DNA of 64,000 bases from Conidiobolus incongruus B7586 (taxonomy: Eukaryota). Location: assembly GCA_000697335.1 (NCBI GenBank), contig JNEM01010781.1, forward strand, positions 1-64,000. Direction: 5' to 3'. The first letter of the stretch is position 1, and each line of letters starts with the position of its first letter. The notes beneath the pieces were generated by a model. It searched no databases and was not told the origin of the DNA. It saw only the letters and a list, made by a program, of their open reading frames with translations. A program made the translations under genes and the position numbers. Below are positions 3,826 through 58,343 of this stretch, in pieces.

Positions 3826-5290
3826 ATGTTAGAAAATCAGAATTCAAAACAAGGTACTCAAAAATATAAAAAGTAACATTAAATTATATGATTAACTCAA
3901 ATAATTAGAAACCAATTTATCTCTCGAAAATTTTCTTCAAAGTGCTTTAATTCCCGTTGAAATTGAAAAAGATTTAAAGATTGCGGTAGTGAGCTCGAAT
4001 TGGACGCCTTGTGCTTCTTTGTGTGAAGAATTGGGCGGTTATAAAGTATTGGAAAGTAAGCTGAAAGAGCGACAAATATATGTGTTTCAAGAACAGTTAA
4101 TTGAATTGGAGGATGAGGAAGAACAAGGAAATAGCGAAGAAAGTGATAATAATTTAACTGACCAAACGGAAGGGTTAGAAATCAAACAAAATATTCCCTC
4201 TGAAGAACCTTTAAAACCTGTGCTAATAGCTGCTTTTACAACTTATGAATATTACAATGAGTTGGAAAGTCCTAATCACAACAATGTGTTTATTTGTATC
4301 GATAAGGTGGATACAACAGGAGCTGTTCAAGATACGAAATCTTCGGTAATACGTCAATTGATTCGTGCTTATTTAGATTATATACATTATACATTTTCAA
4401 AGGATCAAATATTGTGTTACGTGTTTGCTAGAGCTCAACCCCAATATTTGTTTGTGAATTCGTCGGATTACCCAAATAAACATCCTTTGTCAGATTCACA
4501 GTTATGTAAATGGTGGAAGAAGACTTTATCTCAATCAGTGTCTAAAATTCGTGGTGTTTCGAAAGAAAATGACATTAACAATTGGAAAGGCCTGTGGACA
4601 ATTCCTGGATTTCAACCAATTGAGTGCAGAAGTATAGAAGGAAAATTAGTAGAAAGTCAAGTGGAATGGGAGTGGGGTATTCCTTATCCATTGAATGCTT
4701 CATCCGAAAAAGTGATCCCAATCCTTCCTGATGATTGTAAATCTCGAATGATTTATGATCACGAATCTTTAAATGTTAAAACACTCTTCGAAATGATTGC
4801 GATTGGAGAAGAGTGTGGATCTGGAAAAAGAGCTGGTTTATTCTTTTTGAAAAAGGATCCTAAATCTTTAGTCAAAGGTGAAACTCCTGCTGAAGATGGT
4901 AATTGTACGAGTGAAGACTTCACTCAACTGTTAGAACTCTTATTAGAAAAGTTACAATTTGATGATTTGTACAGTATTGTTGATAGCTCTGCCCAAATAT
5001 TTAAATGGTTGAATGATCATCAAATTACAGTGAGTGGCTCTGAAAATCATCCTGATATTGAAAGCTTTATTCCTAATCCAGCAGAAGTTCCAACTGTTGT
5101 TAATACAAATTTGAGCATTAACAGAAAGGGAGATAATCAAGTAAATGAGTTGCCTTCCTCTATGATTAAAAGAAAAACAGAAACTACTGTTAACGAGTTA
5201 CCATCTAATTTGATTAAGAGAAAATCGGACGCAACTGTGAATGAATTACCCTCCAATTTAATCAAAAGAAAACCTAAATCTGAATTATAA
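3826..5290 (+). CDS. RTT109: Histone H3K56 acetyltransferase Rtt109 (exon 3826-3853, intron, exon 3909-5290)
   Basis: Motifs DKVDTTG, VFARAQPQYLF, KHPLSDSQLCKWW, PDDCKSR, EECGSG; upstream ATG exon splices in frame with the 3989-5290 ORF. Confidence 0.88.
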
Positions 5291-18492: not shown

Positions 18493-18574
18493 GACACTTT
18501 GGCGGAGTGGTTAACGCGGCGCCCTGCTAAGGCGTTTCCCTTTGGGAGCACAGGTTCGAATCCTGTAGGTGTCG
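18493..18574 (+). tRNA. tRNA-Ser(GCT)
   Basis: Cloverleaf: acceptor GACACTT/AGGTGTC, D-arm with TGG, anticodon arm GCGCC-CTGCTAA-GGCGT, long variable arm TTCCC-TTT-GGGAG, T-arm ACAGG-TTCGAAT-CCTGT, discriminator G, followed by a TTTTT Pol III terminator. Confidence 0.97.
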
Positions 18575-21979: not shown

Positions 21980-23234
21980 TTAATTGGAACGACTTTTTTG
22001 AGAAATAATAATATCTCCATTCCTATTCGTAAATACATAATTAGGCGTTGGGGGAGGAGGAAACTATAATATAATTAGTCATTATTGTTTTATATGTTGA
22101 AATGGAAATTACCTCACGATTAGGTTGAGCAAAATTGAGTCCACACCAGGTGGGAAGTGTCCTTTCCAATTGTAGCATCTTTAGCTCAATCACTTGTATC
22201 CTTTCCAAAGGACTAAGTTGTTTATTTGGGTTTGTTTCTAAATAATAGATGAAATAAATAATTTGAATAGTTTGTATGAATTACAAATATTACCAAGTTT
22301 TAAATTTAAATGAGCTTCAAGTGCAGATAGCCTTTCTAAAATACTAGGATCAGATAATAATTGAAATTTATCCTTCTTATTCTTGGGGCTATCTGAGCTC
22401 TTTTCAACAACTGAAGCTTTTCCAATACCCACAGATCTAAGTAGTGAAATTTCTCGTTGATAATTATTGATTACGTCTATTTTCATTTGAATATTTCTAT
22501 TTATTTTATTGGGATTTGTCCTTGAACAAGGTTCAGAATTTTCTAAATTATTAATACAATTAGGTTATATTAAAAGTTTGGTTTATGATAAATTACCTTG
22601 ATTTTCAGCATTATTACTATTTTTTGAAAAATCGATGAATTCTTCCTGATTACTTTGATCAATTTTAGCCCTTTTGACACTTATAAATTTATCTATTCTT
22701 TCATCAATCTAATTCATTAAATATATTAATTAAATATGATAATTATTGGAATAATAACTAAGATTACTTCGTCTTGAGTGGCCAATATTTGAATATCATT
22801 AGATACATTCTCATTTTGAATAGGTGATAATGATTCAATGTTGTTAGCATCTAAATATATCTAATAAATAACCATTCAACTATAAATTAAAATGAATCGA
22901 ATTACTGTTATCATTTGTTGTCTCAACGTCAGTATTGTCTTTGGACTATATTAAAATTAAATTAGTACTAATTAATGAATGAATTAGCGCAATTATTACC
23001 GTGATATCTTTAATAAATTCTTTAATAGAATTTTTAATTAAATCATTATTCTCAGGTAAAACTAAAAATTCTGTTGAAAATACTTGAGCTGTATTTTGTA
23101 AATTTAACTATAAAAATATAAAACAAATTATTAAAAGTATAAATAACTTTATAAAATAAATTTACGTTATTTAAAAGTTTTATAATATGTTTATAACAGT
23201 CGTTTATTTCAATATTATTAATTTCCATTATCAT
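21980..23234 (-). CDS. MAP3K12-binding inhibitory protein (MBIP)-like, multi-exon
   Basis: IQILATQDEIDEKIDKFISVKRAKIDQSNQEEF...CSRT...ERLSALEAHLNL...ERIQVIELKMLQLERTLP resembles the MBIP core; exons are joined by GT-AG introns. The start is approximate. Confidence 0.7.
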
Positions 23235-23485
23235 TAACTGAATTATTTTCTCAAATTTTGGATTTTTGAACCCTGTTAAAATATTTATAAACTCAATTCT
23301 ACATTACAAAATTATGGGACTTGGGAAATTTAATCAAATAATTTTAAACTGAAATTAATTAATTGAATGACAAAAATACTATTTAAATTGTAAATGTTAT
23401 ATAATCTTATAAAAGATGTTGTATTTATTAATAGCATTTTTATTTGATGTCATTTGGTTAACATAGATGGTTAATATAACTATTA

Positions 23486-23610
23486 CCTCCTTTGACGCTT
23501 ACAAGAATTGTCCAGAATTGATCAAATTTATCATTCTCATCCAAGTCCTGCATAGTGTCCGAAGACCGCAAGGGAGTGAGCTCCAATACCAACACTGCAA
23601 GACTGGCTTG
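23486..23610 (-). ncRNA. Putative omega-RNA scaffold of the Fanzor2 element
   Basis: Long stem CCAGTCTTGCAGTGT/ACACTATGCAGGACTTGG (23606-23541) enclosing a GGAG-CTCA-CTCC hairpin and a GTC-TTCG-GAC tetraloop. It overlaps the 3' end of the nuclease gene, where TnpB/Fanzor omega-RNAs lie. Confidence 0.6.
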
Positions 23611-24680
23611 ATTGACTGTTAAATAGTAAAGGAATAGTTTTCTAGCAGTTTTGATCTTTCAGTCTATTTACATGATGTCAAAAATACTTGAAAGCCTTAC
23701 CTAAGTTGTATATTCAGATATTCATAATTACTATACGCTTTGCTTAAATGATGCTTATTACAATAGATTACCTTGCATCAAGGATATTTTCTAGTTTTGC
23801 TGAGCAGATTTTATTTAGTTCTGTAATGAGCTTATCTTAATATTACTTTGATATTTTTACTTTTAATATTTCCATTGGCCGTTGTATCATTTTTCAAGCT
23901 TCAAATTCAAGAAATAAAAAATGTGATATTATTTGATAATTAATTTGTAAATCATTATATACCTCATTTACAACATTTTTAATCTTTTTACTTACTTTTC
24001 TTATCCAATAAGGTTTTATGTTAAATTTATTTTTGAGTTTTTTTAATTTAGTATTTATAATAAGAAAAGCAAAGAACAAAGTCTTAATATATTTTTGTCT
24101 TATTTCACAATCAAATAATAAACAAATATCTTTTTTGAAAGTTTGCATATTAAAATCAAGGGTTAGAGTTCTATTTTCAATTTAAAAACTTTGTAGTTTC
24201 TTTTAATATTAATTGTCATAAAGTACAAAATTGAAATCAATCAAGTCTTGTCTTTTGAAATAAGAATTATAATTGAGTATTTTTAACAATAGTTTAAATA
24301 TTCAAACTATTATGATATTATAATAAATAAGATTAAGAAACACCTGAATTCGTGTTTTATCCAATATAAATAGCAGCTAATTCAAATTTACTTTTCTTAT
24401 TTTATTTATTCTATACCCAAATTAATACTATATATTCATTTAGAAAACTATTTATTTTAACTGAAATATTATAGGAAGTGTGAAATAACCATATATTTTT
24501 AACTTTAATAAAATCTTTATTCAAATACTTGGTTTTTAGATGTTATTATTTTAAGATATACAATTTTTTGCCCTTAATAAAGTACTTAAATTTATCCTTT
24601 TGTCTTAAATTACATCATCAATATTTCCTTTTGTTTGTGAATTAAAAAAGAGTTAATTTTTATGAGTTTTCTTGCAAGTT
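23560..24680 (-). pseudogene. Fanzor2 / IS607-TnpB RNA-guided nuclease pseudogene
   Basis: HKQKEILMM*FKT (cf. QK..L..WFGT), WLFHTSYNI, QKTRLD*FQFC, RuvC-I LTLDFNMQTF (cf. VALDPGVRTF; Asp codon 24155-24157), KIKNVVNEVY, FLEFEA*KMI, LR*AHYRTK*NLLSKTRKYP*CKVIYCNKHHLSKAYSNYEYL (cf. LTWAHYRFKQ.LL.KAREYPWCKV..CDEHYTSKTCGNCGYL), ID*KIKTARKLFLYYLT (cf. DRDINGARNILLRYLT). Several stops and frameshifts. Confidence 0.88.
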
Positions 24681-25242
24681 TAATAATTTTTTTGGGTTAA
24701 ATTTTGTTCTTTTATTTACCAAATATACATAATTATTCTCTGTTACAAAATAACTGTAAACTGTTAAATGATAATTTGTAAGTTTTTTCATTGAATTATT
24801 CTTTTTTAAACACTGAGTTTTAAGATTATCCTTTATTATTTTGAAAATAAATACAATGGGCTTTAAGCTATAACCAAAGAGCCTATTTTTGTATTAAAAT
24901 GAAAAATTACAAAGTTCCTTTTTATAGTTAATTTGAAAAGTTTAGAAAATATGAAGTTTGTAATTAAGTGTTGTTATATTATCAATGAAAGTTTTATCTT
25001 GATATTCAAAATTTTGTTTTTGGTGTTTTGAAGAGAGATTTGCAAAACCACTACTAAAATTAAATATTATTTTCACCTATATTAAAATGTTATTTGATAT
25101 TAAAAAACTGAGTAAAGCTTAAATCCACTTAGGTTAATATAATTTGAACCCTTTAAATTTTATCACAACGTTTAAAATTGCTTGACAAGATTCCAGCTTA
25201 ATCTTATATTTTGGAAGCATAAACATAGTCAGAATTATTTAT
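24660..25242 (-). pseudogene. IS607-family TnpA serine recombinase pseudogene
   Basis: Reads NNSDYVYASKI*D*AGILSSNFKRCD..SGFKLYS (HTH), then FANLSSKHQKQNFEYQ (cf. YARVSS.HQKEDLERQ), IDNITTLNYK (cf. DIASGLNYK), YKNRLFGYSLKPIVFIFK (cf. YKDRLCRYG.EL..IFK), KKLTNYHLTVYSYFVTENN (cf. ELADDLL.V..FVA..NG). The start appears as ATA, and there are stops. Confidence 0.8.
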
Positions 25243-25279
25243 GTTTGATCAAAAACAATAGTCTGTTTAATGCTATATA

Positions 25280-25676
25280 TGTTATACCTGTTCATGTTCC
25301 AACAGTATCCTCATTACTCTTCTAGCCTTTTTGTCATTATTCTATCAAGTGTTAAATTACACTAGAAATAATCAATCACTCTTACCTTGTTCAATATTTG
25401 CTTTAATTTTAACCATATTGCATAATACTTGCATAGCTATTTATACAACGTTGAATACAGCGAGTAAAGATCCACTATCTAGCAAACACATATAAATACC
25501 ATTCTGTGCTATCCCTTATCAACAAGACATATCATTGTTATAACCCAATAAACCCTTATTTTAACCTCTAAGCCTGATTGATCTACCCAGTAGACCTCCA
25601 GAACTTCTTGAAAAATATTAGAATATTTTTGAAACTAAATACTATTGTAAAATAGTAGCAAAGTATTTGTATTACA
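25280..25676 (+). mobile_element. Probable solo LTR (~397 bp) inserted just upstream of tnpA
   Basis: Termini TGTTATAC...GTATTACA (TG..CA, 7/8 inverted match); internal TATAAATA (25491) and AATAAA (25547); flanks TATA/TATG are compatible with a 4-bp TSD carrying one transition. Confidence 0.5.
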
Positions 25677-27351
25677 TATGGTAATTTATCTAGGCCTTGA
25701 ATAAATATTGATAGGAATGCCCAAAACTAGTAAAAGTTCCAGGAGCAGTCCAACATAAAAATGTACAATATAATATATCTTGATATGGCTTTTAAATTTT
25801 TAACTGAGTACTTAATGTTGGTGACTAATTTGTTGTATAATTTTATCCATATTGGTGTGCATTTTAAGCAATTAATAAAATGAAAAATTTGATGTTTGAT
25901 AAGATTTTTAATCAATCAACTGTAAACTTAATATTATTATAAGATAAAAATTAAAAATTACAGTCCCTAGAAAAATCCAAATATTTATTGATATAATTAT
26001 TCTATCAACTGTAAATAATAAGCAACTAGGATTATAATTTGCGTTTAACACCATACACTATTTTTGTTTATCAAGTTTATATTTAATTGAAATTTTAAAT
26101 ACATTTTTGACTATTAAAATTTTCATGATATATCTCTTTTCTTCTACAATAAAAACATGTTATTAAAAATTTTTCAATAGCACTCAATCTATGATATAAT
26201 ATTATAGATTTCGGACAATTGATTTTTTTAATACAAATTATTTTATTGGATTTAAGCTTTAAATTTTTATTAAAATTAAAAGGATATTGTAAAAAAGCTT
26301 CATTTTCATTACTATTATAGTTAACTATGATTAATAAAGATAATGTTATTGCTGAAAATGCTAATGAATTTGGATAAAGTTATATTAAGTACGTGATCAA
26401 AATAATTAAAAGTTACGCTTAGTATTTTTTAATACTCTTTCCTTTGAAAAATCATTTATATTTAAGTGTATAAATTTATAGATTCAATTGCTTTAAAAAT
26501 AATGACTAGAAATTTAGTTATTTATATTGATTCCTTTTATTTTTATAAACACAAAATGGGAATTTTTTGAATTTTATTTAATATTTAATATATTGAATAT
26601 TTTCAAAATATTCGCTTTTTTATTAAAAAAAATATTTTTATTAATTGCAATGTTGCTAAATTTAGATAAAATTAATGGGCTATAAATGCATGATTTTTTT
26701 ATGCACTAATTGGACCAATGATCATCGTTCATTAATATTTAATTAAACTTAATTGAACCAAAAAAATATAAGGTAAATTTTGAAGATTTTGCAAATGTTC
26801 AAAAGGATAAAAGTCAAAGTGAAGGTTATAAAAAATAGACGATTATCAGGTTATAACCTCTCTTTCTTTTCTAATGATTGCTGAAATGATGTATGAGGTG
26901 CACTGTGTGCACAGATGATGCTGAGTAATTGTCTATTTGATGGAAAGAAGGTGAATGGAGTAGTATGTCTGGATTTCATTGAATTTGATAATATTTATAA
27001 TAACATTACAAAATTTCTCAAATTTAATATATTTTAATTCAATAATTCATATAATAAATTTATATCAGAAATTTATATGATAAAAACTAAAATTTATGTT
27101 AATTTATTAATTTTAGTTCCATTCATCATTATTTTGTTTCTTTGAAATATTTAATCCTTTTCAAGAAATTTTATCAATTGGGGATATTGTTTCGTCACTT
27201 CTTCATACAACCCTACAGTTCACCTCCAATATCTTTACCCTATTCATCACTAAACCTCTTATCATTAACCAAATTCCATCACATTATATCTTCATTTTTA
27301 TTTTTATCTTACTGAGTTGGCATTCATTTTTATTTTCATTCATCTTCATAA

Positions 27352-37532: not shown

Positions 37533-39596
37533 TTAAACATCCCAATTCCAACCTAATTCATCAATAAAAATATGAAATCATAATACCAATTTATATATAT
37601 CATATTAATAGCTATTAAATTTTGAAATTTCAATTCATAATTATAAAAGAATATATTATATATCATTGAAGTTCTTACGATCAGTCAGTTAATATTTAAT
37701 TAGCTATTGATATAAATATATAAAAGGATGTCATTATGAAAACCAAAGCGTCACTCTAAGTAATGAGCAACCCAATGACTGTCTGCAATTCATAATGTTT
37801 GAATTAGGTTCTAACTATGATCAGACGCATTTACCTCTTTTTGGCCACTAACTTGAATGATAATCAAATTAGATCAAATCAATTCACAAAGAAATAGCAT
37901 TTGATATAATATATCCTTTTCTTAATAAGGAAATAATTTTAATAGCAATTTTATTTTAATTATTATTTTTTACAAGCAATTATATGATTTATTACAAGAA
38001 CTTTTCAATTTTATTAAATTATTTTTAATGTAATGATTTTTCATTGGTTAAATATTAGTTAAGAAACAAATGGCAAAATTTTTTAATTTGGATTTTTCAA
38101 ATATATTGTTAGTTTTAAAAATGAATTATATATAAAATGTATAAGAGGATTAATATTTTCAAACTATATATGTATTTATTTATAATTGTTTCATTATAAT
38201 ATTTATATTTAAATTAAACAAACAAAATTAAAAGGTTTTTATTTTAATATTATTAAAACTCAACTATAAACCTTATAAAATTATTTAAGCTTTGTAAAAA
38301 ATTTTTAAAGATAATCTTTTATTTAAAACTATTATTTAAAAATAAAACAAAATGTTAAATTTTACTATAATAACCATTTCAATAAATATTAATAAATATA
38401 ATAAATTATAATAGTATATAGTATTTATATTTAATTTTTAAGGGCAAATTGTTTTAATAATAAATTTTATATTTTGCTTAAATAAAACTATCTTTAATTA
38501 ATATATTTATTATAAATTAAAGATATTTCTTAATTTATATTATATTTATAAATTATATATAATGATAAATGATTTTCTATTTAAAGAAAATTATAAAAAA
38601 TTACCATATTTAAAATATTTAGTAAATTATAAGTTATCTAATTATAATTTAGTTAATTAAATATATTTATAAGAAAAAAAATTCTTAGAAATTTAATTAG
38701 TTTATAAAATATTAAGTTTTAGTTTTTAAAAAAAATTTTAAGTGTTAGAAGTTTACTAAAAGTATAACAAAGAATTATCATTAATAAAAAAGAATATTAA
38801 TTTCATATTATATATTTTTATATATTATATATCAAAAACATATTTAATTTTGATTTTAAGATTTTGCATTATTTGATTTCTGTAGTAATATCTAATTAAG
38901 ATAATAACAAAATTGATATTAATGTTTATATTTTGTACTAATTAAAAACAGGTACAGATCCTGATTGGCATCTTTTCATAACTAATATATTACGGTTAAA
39001 TAAAATGAAAAATTTTTATTAATATCAATAGTAATAAAGTTATCTTAGCTTTATATCCTTATTGGTTTCTTAAGCAATTGACCAGTATATTATAATAAAA
39101 AACAATAGATAGAATATTATTTTAATCGGTCCAAATATATAAATAAACCTTGATTTTGCTTTACTTTGATTAAATATGCTTCTGCTGTGGAAAAAAAAGA
39201 TATGTAAATTAAAAATAATAAAATCAAATATACTGCTAAAAAATGAGTATAAAATAAAATATCTTGATTTATTCTGCAATTTGGTATTTATATTAATTCC
39301 ATAAATTTTCATGTAATATAATATAGCGGAAAATTTTGTATATAATTAACTAGTCGGATCTCAATATTTTAATTGTTGATTTAATATTTAATAATGACTG
39401 CACATATATAAGTAATTTTAAATATTACTATATTTTAACAAAAACCTAATACTACATTCACTAAATGTAATATTCATTCTTCTAATTGATCCCACAATAA
39501 TTTCAAATTAGAAACGAAAATAAAATTGAATTCCTTTTGGACTTAGTATCAATATTAATCAGCCAACTAAAAATTCTATTGAATATAAAGATAATA

Positions 39597-42779: not shown

Positions 42780-42993
42780 AATTATATTGCCTACTTAAAC
42801 CTGGCAATTAATGCTAATTCTTATTTATGAACCTTTGCTAATGTATTATTAACATATATAATTTATCTCAACTTTAATCCTTGATTGTCTTTATACTGAT
42901 TATAAGATTCATTCATTAATCAAGTAATAAATTTTTCAATTTTTAATTTTCGTCCTTGTTTTGTGAGTATTTCCGAATTAACTATTTTAATAT

Positions 42994-43030
42994 AATGTTT
43001 TGGATACATTTTCAATGTATCCAAAACATT
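42994..43030. repeat. Perfect 17-bp inverted repeat with 3-nt spacer
   Basis: AATGTTTTGGATACATT-TTC-AATGTATCCAAAACATT. Confidence 0.95.
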
Positions 43031-43334
43031 CTATCACATATTTTAAATTTACAAAACTGACACTAGACAAATATATAATCAGGTTCAATTATAATATATA
43101 TATTGCCAATAATATTTTTATTATAACCCAATATATGACATGAGATTTATCAAAGAAAAATTATATTTATAGGATATTTTGATTGTAATATTTTAAATCA
43201 TTATGTTAAATTTTTTAATTAAAAATGTAATCCCATAAATAATTAAATGTTACATTCTCTTTAAAAGGTTAATGAATAAATTAATTATTTTGTTAACTCT
43301 ATATATATATATACATTCATAATAAAAAAGTAAA

Positions 43335-51577: not shown

Positions 51578-51974
51578 TGTTAAAAAACTAGTTCTTTAAA
51601 TTCTTATATATACTTTCATATAATCTAATTAACTATAAATTATATGATTAATTTATACTTATATAATTAAATTAATTATATAAATAGTATTAAATTATCT
51701 AATAAACTAGGTTTTTTTTTCTTCTCAATTCTTACTATTTTTTACTTTTACACTATTTTTAAAATTAAAACTATATTCTATTAATATTATAGGATATTAA
51801 CACTACTTAATATAAATTTTAATATATTAGTAATTTATTTTAGTTTAAAGCTTAATTAAATTTTATTTATATTTATACACTATAGTTATATTATATTATT
51901 ATATTTTACACCACACTACTTTTATATTAAATTTTCTTTTATACTATATTAATTTAACTACCACTATACTTATA
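51578..51974 (+). repeat. 5' LTR
   Basis: Aligns end-to-end with 57281-57680. Followed by TAATAACAATAATAAAA, compatible with a fully G-to-A converted TGG-initiated primer-binding site. Confidence 0.93.
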
Positions 51975-53141
51975 TAATAACAATAATAAAACTATTAAAA
52001 ACTTATTAGAAATTAATAACTATTTATATTAAACTTAATTAATACTATTTTAAATTTTATCTATAATTTATTTTATTTAAATTTAATACTATATACTATA
52101 ATATTACTAAAAAAGGAAATACCCTTATATTATTTTAATGATGATAATAACTTAATTACTAAATAAATCTAAAACTTTAGTTTTTAAAAACTTATTACCC
52201 TTTAAAAAACTTATATTAAACAACTTTTAATTAAAAAAATATATCTTAAAGAGTTTAAATTTAACAAACTAGTTACTTCACTATAGTTAATATATTAAAC
52301 TACCTCATTAATATTTTTAAAAACAAATTAACTATTTATGATAGTTTTAAAAACCTTTATAAACTTGAAAACTACCTTAAAAATATAAAGAATTATTTTA
52401 ATTTAATTTTAAAAAAGATTTAAAGAATATTTTTAAATTAACTATTTTTTTTTAGAAAAATTTATTTATATTTGGTAGTTAACTTATTATAAATTTAATC
52501 TTAAAAAATTTTTAGGAGGATAGTTTATTATAAAAATATAAACTTTTAAACAATTAGAAAAAGCTTTTAAAAAGAGATATTACTTAAAAAATCAAGTTTA
52601 ATTAATAAGAGAAAAGTTTTCTTAACTTAAATAAAAAACTTCTACAAAATAATTAATTGAGAAATTTAATGAGATATATTTAAATATATTAAATATCACT
52701 AAAGAAGAATAAATCTACAAATTATTATAATATCTTAATTTTTAAGTGAAGCTTTAATTAATTAATAAAAAATACTTTGATAATATGTTTTTTTTTAACA
52801 TTTGTAATATAGTAATTATAATTGATAATATTTTTTACTTTATAACTAGATTTTTTTACCTTAAAAATTAATTTTTTAAACTTTACTTTAACCCACTTAA
52901 ATTTCAAATAATAAATATTTCTACTTTAAAGCTTTATAAGAAAACCTTTAATAAAAAAGTTAAAACCTACTTGAAAATAAATAAAAGTTGTTATTACTAC
53001 CAAAAAACTTAAGTTAACTATAAAACTAACAAATACCCTTTAAAAAAACAACTTCTATTTAATTTTTAACAATTTTAACTTATCAACCATAAATCAAACT
53101 TGAATAATATTAATATAACTTTAAAATCACCTTTTTTATAA

Positions 53142-53932
53142 TTAGTTAGCAAATTTTAATTTAATCTATAAAAATTCTAATAAACTATTAATTCCACAAA
53201 TTAAATTATTTATACTAAAGAAATCTAATTGATTAAATTATTAAAAACTAAAAATATTCTAGTAATTAATTTACTTTATAATTTTTTACCTTTAACTATC
53301 ACTTTATTATTTATGTTAATTAATTTTTTTATTAATATACTTGTTAGTGTTTTAATTAATTTTAATTATTTTAGTTATATTATCTCTTCTTTTGTTGTTG
53401 TAAAATTATTTTTACCTACTTAAAAAAATAACTTGATAATTAAATATACTAACAACTTAATAAAACAAGCATTTAATACTATATTTAAATATTTATTATT
53501 ACCCCTTAACTATTTTTAACATATTAAATTTTTAGTTAGCAAATTTTAATTTAATCTATAAAAATTCTAATAAACTATTAATTCCACAAATTAAATTATT
53601 TATACTAAAGAAATCTAATTGATTAAATTATTAAAAACTAAAAATATTCTAGTAATTAATTTACTTTATAATTTTTTACCTTTAACTATCACTTTATTAT
53701 TTATGTTAATTAATTTTTTTATTAATATACTTGTTAGTGTTTTAATTAATTTTAATTATTTTAGTTATATTATCTCTTCTTTTGTTGTTGTAAAATTATT
53801 TTTACCTACTTAAAAAAATAACTTGATAATTAAATATACTAACAACTTAATAAAACAAGCATTTAATACTATATTTAAATATTTATTATTACCCCTTAAC
53901 TATTTTTAACATATTAAATTTTTAGTTAGCAA
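53142..53932 (+). repeat. 390-bp tandem duplication inside the retrotransposon
   Basis: 53142-53531 is repeated at 53532-53921 with no difference seen; TTAGTTAGCAA occurs at all three junctions. This explains the two identical 64-aa ORFs. Confidence 0.93.
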
Positions 53933-54439
53933 CATTAATTATAATTTTATACTAGGTTAAAATTAGTTTAAATATCACAGTTTTATATTTATAAATATTA
54001 CTTTAGAAAGTTACAAATTTATTTTTTTTATATTCTAAAAAAAATTAGTAGAATTAATCTTAAAAAACCTATATTACCCTATTATAAAATTATTAAATAT
54101 TTTACCTAACACTAACTTTATAATTATAGTAAATAATTCTATTATTATAAGTAAAAATCAATGTAAAAAGTTAATTAAAAACTTAAATAATTTATAAAAA
54201 TATATATTTGTTTATTATTTATCTATTAATACTTTATTTGTTGAATTTAATAAAGTTATACTTAATAACTACTTCTTATACAATATAATAAGTTAATTTA
54301 CTAATGTTTTTAAACTTGTAAATAAATTACCACTTAAATATAATATTAAGTATAAAATTAAACTACTCTTTAATATATAATTATATTTAAAGTTTACTTA
54401 CTATTTATTTCTTGAATAATATTAAACTTTAAAAGAAGA

Positions 54440-57250
54440 AATCTAAAAACTATTTAAAAATAGATATATTAAACCTTCTTCTTTACTATAAAAATCTCTA
54501 ATCTTTTTTGTATAAAAGGTTAACAGTGGTTAAAGATTATATATTAATAATTATATTTTAAACTCTAAAATTATTAAGGATAAAATTTTATTATTAAACC
54601 TACATGATATTAAAGATAAACTATATAAATCAATTATATTTACTAAATTAAATATTAAGAATAGATATTATAAAATTAAAATTAAAAAAAATTCTATCTT
54701 TTTAATTATTTTCAATATTCTTTTAAGTTACTATAAATTTACTGTTATATACTTTAAATTGTGTAATACCTTTGTAACTTTTACTTAATTTATCAATTCC
54801 CTTTTTAACCTTGTTTTTAATAATTTTATTATTACTTACTTTGATAATATTTTAATCTATTTAAAAACTAAAGAAGAATATATTTAACATATTAATTAAA
54901 TTTTATAAATTATTCAAGAATATAAATTACTTTTAAAATTATTAAAATATATCTTTAATACCTCTTCTGTTTTTTTTTATGGTTATATTGTTTCCTTTTA
55001 AAAAATTAGTATTGATTTAACTAAACTCAATAGTATTAAAGCTTTTACTATATTTATAAACAAAGATTAACTTATGTTTATACTTAGATTATTAAATTAC
55101 TTTAAAGATTTCATTGATTTTTTTGTTGAATTTATTACTTTTCTTACTAATCTTTTAAAGAAAATCTCTCTTTTTAAATAAACCCTACTATATATTTTTT
55201 ACATAAATACTTTAATTTTCTATATTACTAATGTTTTTACTTTATCTATTTTTAATCTAAAACTATTTATTATTATTTTTACTAACTCTAATTCTTTTAT
55301 AATTAGTAAATAATTAACCTAGTTTAAATTTAATTTATATTTTACTTTACAACTATAAAATAAAATAATAAATAAAAGAGAATAAGTTGAGTTTAACTTT
55401 ATAAATATTACTTTAAAATTAATAATATTCTAGTTAAAAAAAAATAAAACTAGCTGAATTAAAATACCTAGTCTATAAATAAAAACTTTTTACTTTAATA
55501 GAAATAATCAAAAATCACTCACACTTCTTATTTTATAATTTTTTCTTAGTACTTACAAATTATAAATTACTTATCTATTTAAATACTCAAAAGTATTTAT
55601 TAAGAAAATAAATTAGATAGATTAAAACTATCTAAGTTTACTTTTTCTTTATTTAATATCTTTTAGGTTAATAAAATTATATTGTAGATACTTTATTAAA
55701 AAATTTTATATACTTATTTTTTTATTCTAATTGTAAAAATCTAGCAAATATTAACTTAATGATTATTAATGAAAGAAATAAAAAATTTATTAAATTACTT
55801 TAAAAAACACTGTTAAATAATGATTTCTTTATTTTAGTTAAAGAAGAACTTTTTAAACCATTAGAAAACTAACTAAAATATGTTAAAAAATTTAAAATTA
55901 TCAATAACTTACTATATTATTATAATTATTTATATATTCTTAACATTCTTAAAATTTAACAAATAATATTTAATGAATGTTATAATTTACTTATTAGAGA
56001 ATATTAAAACTAGTTAAAAACTGTTGAGAAAATTAAAATAAAGTATTACTAACCTTCCCTAGTTAAATTAGTTTAGAAATACACTAATACCTATAATATA
56101 TACTAAAGAACTAAATATAATACTCAACTAAAATATAATAAATTTATTCCCCTACAAGTTTCTAATAAAATTTAATAATAAATCTAACTTAATTTTATAG
56201 AAATTTTTAAATCAACAAATAATTATAATAATTTACTAATTATAATTGATTCATTTTCCAAATATATTTATTTTATTTTTTATTTCAAAACTTCTATAGC
56301 TAAAGATATTATACAATTGTTATTTTTTAATATCTTTACCTATTATAAAATTCTACAAACTATTATATCTGATAAAGATATATATTTTAACTTTTAATTT
56401 TAAAAGTTACTATTTTTTTCCTTTAAGATTAACCTAGTTATATTTACTATTAATTATTATTAAACTAATAAACTTGTTAAAAAAACTATTAAAACCTTAA
56501 AGTAAATAATTAAAGTTTATATTAACACTAATTAATTAAATTAAAACACTTATATCTATTAACTTTAATATTTATTCAACACTTTTATTAATAAATTAAT
56601 AGGTTTTAACTTTTATTTTATTAATTATAACAAACATCCTAATTTAATAATTACTCTAAAACTTTAAATTAACTTACTTTTAAATATTGTTGAATTTTAA
56701 TCTAATATCAAATATATCAATTCCCTTGTTAAATTTAACTTAGAAGAAAATTAAAAGATTATAGAATAACAATACTTAAAGTTATTTAGAAACCCTTTTA
56801 AATATAAAACTAGTATGTTTGTATATTTAGAACAATTTACCTTTAAACCTACCCTACTTAAATTTAGCTTAAATCCCAAATATTTACTATTATATTATAA
56901 TCCCTATAAAATTTAATCTATTGATTTAAATTTTGAAAATATTACTTTAGAATTACCTTCAACTTTAAAAATCAACTTTACCTTTCACATATCTAAAATT
57001 AAACCATACTTTAAAGATTTTAACACTTTTCTTAATTAATTAAAAACTTTAAAATTAGATCTAATTATTAATTAAAATAAAGAAGAAGAATACTATGTTG
57101 ATTATATAATTAAGTTTAAATTTATTAGGAATAAGCTTTATTTTTATATAAAATAGATAGGTTATTTTATTAAAGAAGCTACATAAGAACCTTTAAAAAA
57201 TATTAAGAATACTTTAACCTATTATACCTATTTGCAAAAAATTAAAGAGT
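54440..57250 (+). pseudogene. Degenerate pol (RT, RNase H, integrase, chromodomain)
   Basis: RT: IFFV*KVNSG*RLYIN, FTKLNIKNRYYKIKI, YKFTVIYFKLCNTFVTF, YFDNILIY (54837-54848 = YFDD). RNase H: IFTNSNSF. Integrase: IIDSFSKYIYFI, IISDKD, YNPYKI, LELPSTLKINFTFHISKIKPY. Chromodomain: EEEYYVDYII...YIK*IGY..EAT*EPLKNI. Confidence 0.9.
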
Positions 57251-57280
57251 GTGTCTCTTTTAAAAAACCTACTAAGGGAG

Positions 57281-57680
57281 TATTAAGAAACTAATTCTTT
57301 AAATTCTTATATATACTTTTATATAATCTAATTAACTATAAATTATATAATTAATTTATATTTATATAGTTAAATTAATTGTATAAATAGTATTAAATTA
57401 TCTAATAAATTAGGTTTTTCTTTTTTCCTCTTAATTCTTACTATTTTTTACTTTTACACTATTTCTAAAATTGAAACTACATTCCATTAATATTGTAGGA
57501 TATTGGCACTACCTAATATAAATCTTAATATATCAGTGACTCATCCTAGTTTGAAGCTTAATTAAACTTTGTTTACACTTGCATACTACAGCCACATTAT
57601 ATTACCATGTTCTGTACCACACTACTTTTATATTAAGTCTTCTTCTGTACTATATTAGTTTAACTACCACTACACTTACA
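57281..57680 (+). repeat. 3' LTR
   Basis: Aligns with the 5' LTR; ends ...CACTTACA, immediately followed by the TSD TTTCT. Confidence 0.93.
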
Positions 57681-58343
57681 TTTCTAATTATTATAATATA
57701 AACTTGATTAGTTGTTTTCAGCTAAAATAGCTTTGTAATATAATATAAAAAGTTTTTTGTTTATTAGTCTTATTTTTTTCACTGTTTTATTATATATTAA
57801 ATCTTTTATAAAATATAAATCAGATTTAAATAAAAAATTAACACTAATAAGCAATTGTAAAAAGCTTAAAAATAAGAACTTAATTGAAAAATATTTTTGG
57901 ATTTTTATTTTAAATATAAATACTTATTATGACCCATATGTTCAATATATTTAATGTATTCATAGTTATTTTAATAAAAATATACCTAAATGTTATTTAT
58001 ACCATTACCACCATTTTAATTTTGAACTATAATTATTAATATTATTATTATTATTATTATCATTCGAAAAAATATATTAAATATTAATATAAAAGTAGGT
58101 TACCAATTTAATACTAATTAATAAAATATAATGAATAAATTCATGAAATATAACATTTGTAAATTAAATATAAGTTCTAGGATAAGGAAAAATTATTAGC
58201 AAGTAACTAGATTTGAATTTAAAAATAGCACCATATAATTGCTTAAATTAGCAAAATCAATATAATGAATTATTTATTATCTAAATTATTTAATTAAATT
58301 AATAATAACACTATATAAGTTGTTATAAATGTAAAATTGCCAT

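Follow-up and report, generated by a model that had tools for sequence, protein, structure and literature searches.

A decayed stretch of minus-strand DNA, lying among ordinary eukaryotic genes, raises the question of whether a bacterial-type transposon with an RNA-guided nuclease once lived in this genome, and what became of it. The window, by which we mean the whole 64-kb stretch of DNA that was analysed, is AT-rich (27% GC) and carries intron-split housekeeping genes; intron-split eukaryotic genes flank the element. Sequencing of the source organism yielded a contig of 3.7 kb that runs through the element from one flank into the other and is identical to the window over 23077-26200. The host's affinity is read from neighbouring genes. 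Vps35 scores 716 bits against 7blp and 6h7w, which we take to be the fungal protein, and 650 bits against 6vab and 7bln, which we take to be the mammalian one. An Rtt109-like ORF at 3905-5290 likewise points to a fungus.

The fossil is a decayed IS607/Fanzor2 transposon, a new but dead example of an element type that is already known. The probability is about nine in ten that this is a dead IS607-family copy with broken tnpA and Fanzor2 genes, whose ancestor likely moved by TnpA serine recombination and whose nuclease would have cut sites lacking the element, with a right-end RNA as its likely guide. The tnpA and nuclease pseudogenes follow each other in this order on one strand, and the 5' end of the nuclease overlaps tnpA (Table 1).

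Table 1. Features of the fossil element, with positions in the window.
Feature	Position	Strand	Remarks
Likely left end	25628..25760	-	Outer boundary about 25745-25763; rise in contig depth
Secondary 347-bp insertion, between left end and tnpA	25281..25627	.	Junction found in another copy
tnpA pseudogene	24700..25242	-	HTH (about 25242-25066) and serine-recombinase domain (25046-24708); 1 frameshift, 7 stops
Fanzor2 nuclease pseudogene	23515..24900	-	About 30 stops, about 10 frameshifts; start approximate; placing of frameshifts depends on the model
RuvC-I motif (family LDPGVRTF, here LDFNMQTF)	24137..24160	-	Asp kept (24157)
Best preserved block: helix, shifted RuvC-II Glu, first zinc-finger pair	23712..23876	-	Both Cys now Tyr
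RuvC-III block	23610..23667	-	Arg codon is a stop; catalytic Asp is Lys
Right end and predicted omega-RNA scaffold, overlapping nuclease tail	23498..23655	-	Hairpin 23584-23573; terminal GTAAG 23502-23498
Flank as would-be guide	23478..23497	-	Putative, after the layout in PMC11832414 and 10.1101/2023.08.09.552727; adjoins predicted right end

Identity of the two pseudogenes

The nuclease has recognizable relatives. A phmmer search of 1.84 billion proteins with 23640-23885, stops being read as X, gave 20 matches at E<=0.001, the best from Scutellospora calospora (E 3e-10). Pfam PF07282 was found in 16 of the 20, P0016 belongs to the same family by eye, and three are unrelated repeat proteins. 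The closest named matches are from Scutellospora, Racocetra and Diversispora (Glomeromycota). One match, P0011, also aligns the nuclease tail down to 23536 (E 9e-20) and, as a query, yielded 417 longer relatives. For the recombinase, TnpA of the related locus L025 served as query and yielded 1188 relatives; two that were tested pass NF033518 (IS607 transposase), and one resembles the ISC1926/IS1535 TnpA structures.

Profiles built from such relatives converge on this locus. In six-frame HMMER searches, the best match anywhere in the 64-kb window lies here for both the profile of 102 Fanzor2-like relatives (23870-23727, iE 5e-11) and that of 120 IS607 TnpA relatives (25046-24708, minus strand, iE 1.5e-4; next best iE 4). 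Frameshift alignment with drift-aware scoring gives the nuclease 103.3 bits; the highest control scores are 17.1 among 20 shuffles and 23.0 among 64 tiles of the window. TnpA reaches 38.5 bits (profile positions 1-184 over 25242-24732), while its 100 shuffles stay at or below 17.3 and its 134 tiles at or below 17.5. The drift parameters, which represent AT mutation, were picked after the data had been seen, so that the weight rests on the controls, namely shuffles, tiles, reversed profiles and the opposite strand. A second profile, made from 15 close relatives, covers 24542-23515 at 138 bits (maximum 18.4 in 25 shuffles), and the end-to-end alignment to it contains 30 stops and 10 frameshifts. 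These scores uphold the earlier note, which had proposed an IS607/Fanzor2 identity with tnpA followed by the nuclease.

Sensitivity differs among methods and parts. Under plainer scoring TnpA is marginal (18.5 versus a shuffle maximum of 16.8), and the HTH alone, at 17.0 versus 13.1 and 15.6 in the drift-aware mode, is not significant (9.5 versus a maximum of 13.0). Taken by themselves, the N-terminal half of the nuclease (15.8 versus a tile maximum of 20.0) and RuvC-I (16.0 versus 16.7) fail; their assignment rests on colinearity. The family search that had been proposed succeeded with relatives' profiles and frameshift alignment, and came up empty where Pfam and NCBIfam were scanned with nine fossil pieces. 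PDB searches with two fossil pieces gave no relevant match, and a word-based homologue search with the 88-aa open piece scored none of 43 candidates. When 160 retrieved loci were compared with the region by blastn, two weak AT-rich matches were all that appeared, and scans of viral contigs, with a fossil piece and P0051 as queries, gave no confirmed locus.

The nuclease motifs named in the earlier note, RuvC-I, a Glu position reading AAG and RuvC-III, all occur on the minus strand where it had put them. (i) In RuvC-I, C>T and G>A transitions account for every difference at the Pro and Gly codons of DPG, and DPG is found in all 27 protein-database relatives of the tree. By inference, the ancestral nuclease would have had the DPG of RuvC-I; the present copy reads DFN. 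(ii) The codon that aligns with the shifted RuvC-II Glu of the family, which stands six residues before the zinc finger, is 23756-23754; it is now AAG (Lys), one G>A change from the Glu that relatives have. (iii) The RuvC-III block reads D*KIKTAR at 23664-23641, and its catalytic, second Asp is at 23658. Two of the three catalytic RuvC residues, the RuvC-II Glu and the RuvC-III Asp, have thus become Lys. The C4 zinc finger is destroyed and the RD of RuvC-III is absent from the present copy; the block is homologous but broken, as is expected of a pseudogene. The stretch that had been called a meaningless 84-aa ORF turns out to be coherent: 95 open codons (23894-24181) start at RuvC-I and end at the helix preceding RuvC-II.

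In tnpA, the predicted catalytic Ser codon at 25034 is kept and the adjoining Arg is lost; 19 of 64 conserved columns are kept. Judged by its sequence, the upstream gene is a TnpA serine recombinase with an N-terminal HTH, the mark of IS607.

A quick IQ-TREE analysis of 56 rows places the fossil within a 36-row clade with the shifted Glu (SH-aLRT 100). Inside it, a weaker subclade (83) joins the fossil, on a long branch (2.45), to Racocetra and Diversispora proteins. The tree contains no Fanzor1 rows. Of 74 candidate rows, 19 were dropped where motif extraction failed, and the alignment of the fossil is profile-guided. Its predicted place is with Fanzor2/pro-Fanzor and not with canonical TnpB. 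Three close relatives, P0047, P0050 and P0051, are intact and keep every one of the three catalytic residues. P0050 passes NF040570; its best PDB match is ApmFz2 (9B0L; E 2.4e-23), and the two align at all three catalytic motifs.

Ends, copies and the predicted omega-RNA

The outer limits of the element emerge from its copies. Contigs from two sequencing runs of one sample of the source organism were aligned to the region at 80% likeness. Two further runs, X5 and X7, with another organism code, gave no coverage of the locus, which does not prove that it is absent there. Summed contig depth, which is a rough guide only to copy number, climbs from a base of about 40, reaching 250-310 across 23484-23711 and 200-550 across 25536-25763. 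In the interior it remains at 40-105, and matches there are short and partial. At the left, depth is 552 in the bin 25650-25763 versus 41 in the adjoining bin. The limits first given, 23486..25279, are accordingly too narrow: the element very likely reaches beyond 25279, to about 25760.

The related copies that had been expected elsewhere in the genome exist: 18 contigs of one run carry the left end and differ in letters at 25658, and 18 match within 23506-23655 at the right end, mostly at 80-90% identity (17 of the 18 are less than 90% alike). No contig at 80% likeness or more matches 23660-23760, nor has the interior a long match. No intact copy was seen among contigs matched at 80% likeness; one less than 80% like the present copy would be missed by this alignment. 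Single contigs hold both end segments (joints 23627->25685 and 23643->25629). One such contig measures 2711 nt, and the upstream segment sits close to its distal end, the arrangement expected of a full-length copy. In three contigs that extend into RuvC-III, the Asp codon is preserved in frame, and all three have a stop at the Arg codon in consensus. A 143-nt right-end contig reaches a depth of 157 where single-copy DNA has about 40, a hint of about four near-identical right ends, and two contigs depart from homology at 23655 into sequence unlike the gene. As the other copies have the same ends and mostly different flanks, we infer that the element family spread in this genome by transposition.

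In another copy, 25246 is joined to 25628 through 37 letters that match 25247-25280 of the window, which marks the 347 bp between as an insertion in the present copy. The insertion (31% GC) has single-copy depth over 25308-25535. A resemblance to a Tc1/IS630 DDE transposase piece, noted by eye in one minus frame, found no support in Pfam or in plasmid tblastn and was dropped.

Both flanks, 22800-23426 and 26118 onward, are low-copy repeats. A 2076-nt contig matches 23077-23284, about 23426 and 26118 (joint 23426->26118); it is too short for the intervening 2691 bases and may represent an empty-site paralog. Left ends in the IS607 family carry short, repeated motifs that TnpA binds; this one is decayed and interrupted, and the left ends of seven relatives show no significant similarity to it. 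L005 seemed to have a left-end motif in common with it, but half of the shuffles (150 of 300) scored as well, and the motif was rejected.

The similarity of the right end to that of L001 (score 37 versus 17.4+-2.6) was equalled by none of 300 shuffles, and that to L003 by one of 300; for L002 (241 of 300) and L005 (300 of 300) similarity is not significant. TTGTAAG stands at the predicted end (23498) in both the window and L001. Since the local match to L001 does not stop at GTAAG but goes on for about 11 bases, the true right end could be a few bases farther out. The hairpin near this end is still predicted to form, and its loop, CTCAC, pairs at four of five positions with the terminal GTAAG; the base that would complete the pairing (five of five) is present in five other contigs. 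Read by eye, without a formal covariation count, the loop is complementary to the terminal bases in L001 (CTTAC/GTAAG), L002 (CTTG/CAAG), the L003 family (CTACAA/TTGTAG) and L005 (CTACA/TGTAG), with letters that differ between families. The predicted folding of the right-end region is not better than that of shuffled sequence (z -0.24), and an Rfam scan found no omega-RNA family, its only match being a tRNA. Omega-RNAs of ApmFz2 and ISXfa1 are described as ending in a pseudoknot (PMC11832414; 10.1101/2023.08.09.552727). The pairing here fits that description, and an omega-RNA with a terminal pseudoknot is predicted at the right end. The copies and relatives outline this end and its pseudoknot, a basis for guide design in intact members of the subfamily.

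A sister Fanzor2 family (L003, L004, L006-L008, L011, L012, L016, L018, L022, L024 and L028; 85-94% alike) occupies many sites, several from the same metagenomes, and has a sharp common right end. Six of its loci diverge directly after TGTAG(AG). Several copies are frameshifted, and none of the loci of this family has a TnpA match. The family is a good set for defining the Fanzor2 right end and target preference.

Decay of the element

The fossil has 21% GC, against 42-56% in five related loci, and its CpG observed/expected ratio is 0.24, against 0.59-0.83 in four host genes. The earlier note had seen many simple C>T/G>A lesions. This holds for the nuclease, where they account for 59% of the changes inferred at conserved columns (31.8 of 54), against a null of 28+-4% that was computed for nuclease and TnpA combined. 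It does not extend to TnpA, which shows no excess (15.2 of 56, 27%). For both genes together the share is 43%, above the null maximum of 39% in 500 draws. The C>T changes stand in the contexts CpA (18), CpT (15), CpC (8) and CpG (6). Reconstruction of the active ancestor, which had also been proposed, has little to offer: 33 of 76 conserved nuclease columns survive amid the stops and frameshifts, and intact relatives of the subfamily are already available, so that the fossil itself adds little.

Elsewhere in the window, 51580-57685 holds a decayed LTR retrotransposon whose domain order is Ty3/Gypsy-like. Its two LTRs, each about 400 bp, lie 5.7 kb apart, and weak Pfam matches to gag, RT RNase H and integrase zinc follow one another in that order. 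It has no CpG in 5.3 kb. Of the 52 differences between its LTRs, 50 are C/T or G/A, with 42 toward A/T in the left LTR; contexts are CpA (28), CpT (18) and CpC (4). Its decay appears to be RIP-like hypermutation, a stronger form of the process seen at the Fanzor2 fossil. In a host outside the Dikarya fungi, this would be noteworthy. A tandem duplication within the LTR element (53129-53818; 300 nt at 98%, period 390) is either younger than the hypermutation or an assembly artefact.

Known systems, mechanism and alternative explanations

Elements of this type are known from several hosts. Bao and Jurka (2013; PMC3627910) describe Fanzor2 in four yeasts and, together with serine recombinases, in amoeba and viruses. 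Jiang (2023; PMC10530073) counts 3655 nucleases and reports Fanzor2 to be enriched in giant viruses; its supplement holds no match for six genera. Saito (2023; PMC10432273) finds Fz2 broadly in fungi and tabulates Glomeromycota entries, three of which (Supplementary Table 1) bear a TnpA-like stretch before the nuclease. Fungal IS607/Fanzor2 elements that include TnpA are thus already on record. The table files searched hold no row for Conidiobolus, Entomophthora, Basidiobolus, Smittium, Linderina, Rozella or Neocallimastix.

The present element combines traits of several of these systems. Four Glomeromycota Fanzor2/IS607 entries lend themselves to comparison: CAG8436474.1, CAG8554615.1, RHZ81291.1 and CAB5365895.1, from Scutellospora, Cetraspora, Diversispora and Rhizophagus, respectively. 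These rows of PMC10432273 have the nuclease motifs LDPGVRTF, WSHYRF, E-x-TSKTC and RDxNxARN, which the ancestor of the fossil would have had, whereas the present copy is far more decayed, has no open gene, and has a host that may lie outside Glomeromycota. ApmFz2 of Acanthamoeba polyphaga mimivirus (9B0L; PMC11832414; PMC10530073) shares the IS607 context with TnpA and has, as predicted for the ancestor of the fossil, the DPG of RuvC-I, the Glu shifted beside the zinc finger, and a pseudoknot with the last bases before the guide. It is viral, however, while the fossil is nuclear and inactive, and the relative P0050 is only distantly similar to it, at the E-value given above. The predicted scaffold here is about 115-160 nt, compared with 226 nt in ApmFz2. 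Bacterial IS607, IS1535, ISC1926 and ISXfa1 (PMC6188088; 10.1101/2023.08.09.552727) likewise have an HTH-first serine recombinase overlapping a TnpB-type gene, but the fossil nuclease is of pro-Fanzor/Fanzor2 type rather than canonical TnpB. As in the 'ghost' Fanzor loci (PMC10432273), other contigs retain the ends and omega-RNA region without a matching interior; here those interiors are either deleted or merely diverged, and the RNA product is a prediction.

The mechanism can be outlined from papers on the family. TnpA alone drives IS607 transposition over a two-base identity without target duplication (PMC6188088), the core dinucleotide being GG (PMC6188088; 10.1101/2023.08.09.552727). In the family, the nuclease follows an RNA made from the right end, with the adjoining flank as guide. 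(i) TnpA of the ancestor would have recombined at two bases, likewise without target duplication. (ii) A right-end omega-RNA with a terminal pseudoknot would have taken its guide from the flank. (iii) The nuclease would have cut empty sites, so that the element was retained. (iv) The family would then have spread in this genome by TnpA transposition and later decayed. (v) Following the spread, host C-to-T mutation may have inactivated it.

Whether all copies are dead is a separate matter. An intact copy elsewhere might supply TnpA and Fanzor2, so that short copies consisting of ends plus omega-RNA are still moved. The deep 143-nt contig and the two contigs that leave homology at 23655 fit such a partly living family, as does the possibility that an intact copy is less than 80% alike. 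Yet no contig reaches 23660-23760 at 80% or more, the three copies extending into RuvC-III share a stop in consensus, 17 of 18 aligned contigs are less than 90% alike, and near-identical ends may be segmental duplicates; on balance we regard continued activity as unlikely. It is more doubtful that IS607/Fanzor2 has transposed to some 19 or more sites in the nucleus of a fungus, whose lineage may be one in which Fanzor2 is unrecorded, and still has young non-autonomous omega-RNA copies moved in trans by an intact element. Such a genome would offer a fungal system for watching IS607 transposition and RNA-guided retention in a eukaryote.

Segmental duplication offers another origin for the copies, as does carriage by a different repeat or by an endogenous giant virus, in place of IS607 transposition in the fungus. 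A survey by Gilbert and Cordaux (2013; PMC3673617) reports no evidence of IS607 transposition in eukaryotes, the flanks being common among the copies they describe. The low-copy flanks here and the enrichment of Fanzor2 in giant viruses (PMC10530073) point the same way. Against this, the sharp rise in depth is limited to the two end segments and none of the 18 right-end contigs fits beyond 23506; the neighbouring ORFs resemble, by eye, ordinary eukaryotic housekeeping genes; and one contig matches both flanks while being too short for the element. About 18 further loci with the same ends and different flanks argue for real IS607 transposition in a eukaryotic nucleus, and this origin by duplication or carriage is very unlikely. 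It would be harder still to credit that the locus holds no more than a nuclease remnant, with a TnpA match and an upstream repeat that are chance or unrelated, or that the Fanzor2 gene sat in a TIR transposon (Fanzor2* type). TnpA is indeed the weaker match in iE, in columns kept and in its lack of a C>T/G>A excess, and capture of Fanzor2 by TIR transposons has been described (10.1101/2023.08.09.552727). Nevertheless, three TnpA sub-regions lie in order over 184 profile positions, at the very place that tnpA occupies in L001, L005, L009 and L025; the HTH and C-terminal parts each exceed all controls in drift-aware scoring; and no inverted repeat links both ends among the 25 longest listed. A decayed IS607/Fanzor2 element that spread by its own transposition is the reading we prefer.

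Minor features of the window include an inverted pair of repeats of about 300 bp (252-566 and 38044-38338; 75-82% alike), a tRNA gene at 18493-18574 (Rfam RF00005, 60.8 bits) and a long, MITE-like palindrome at 42962-43062 with a perfect core around 43010-43014.
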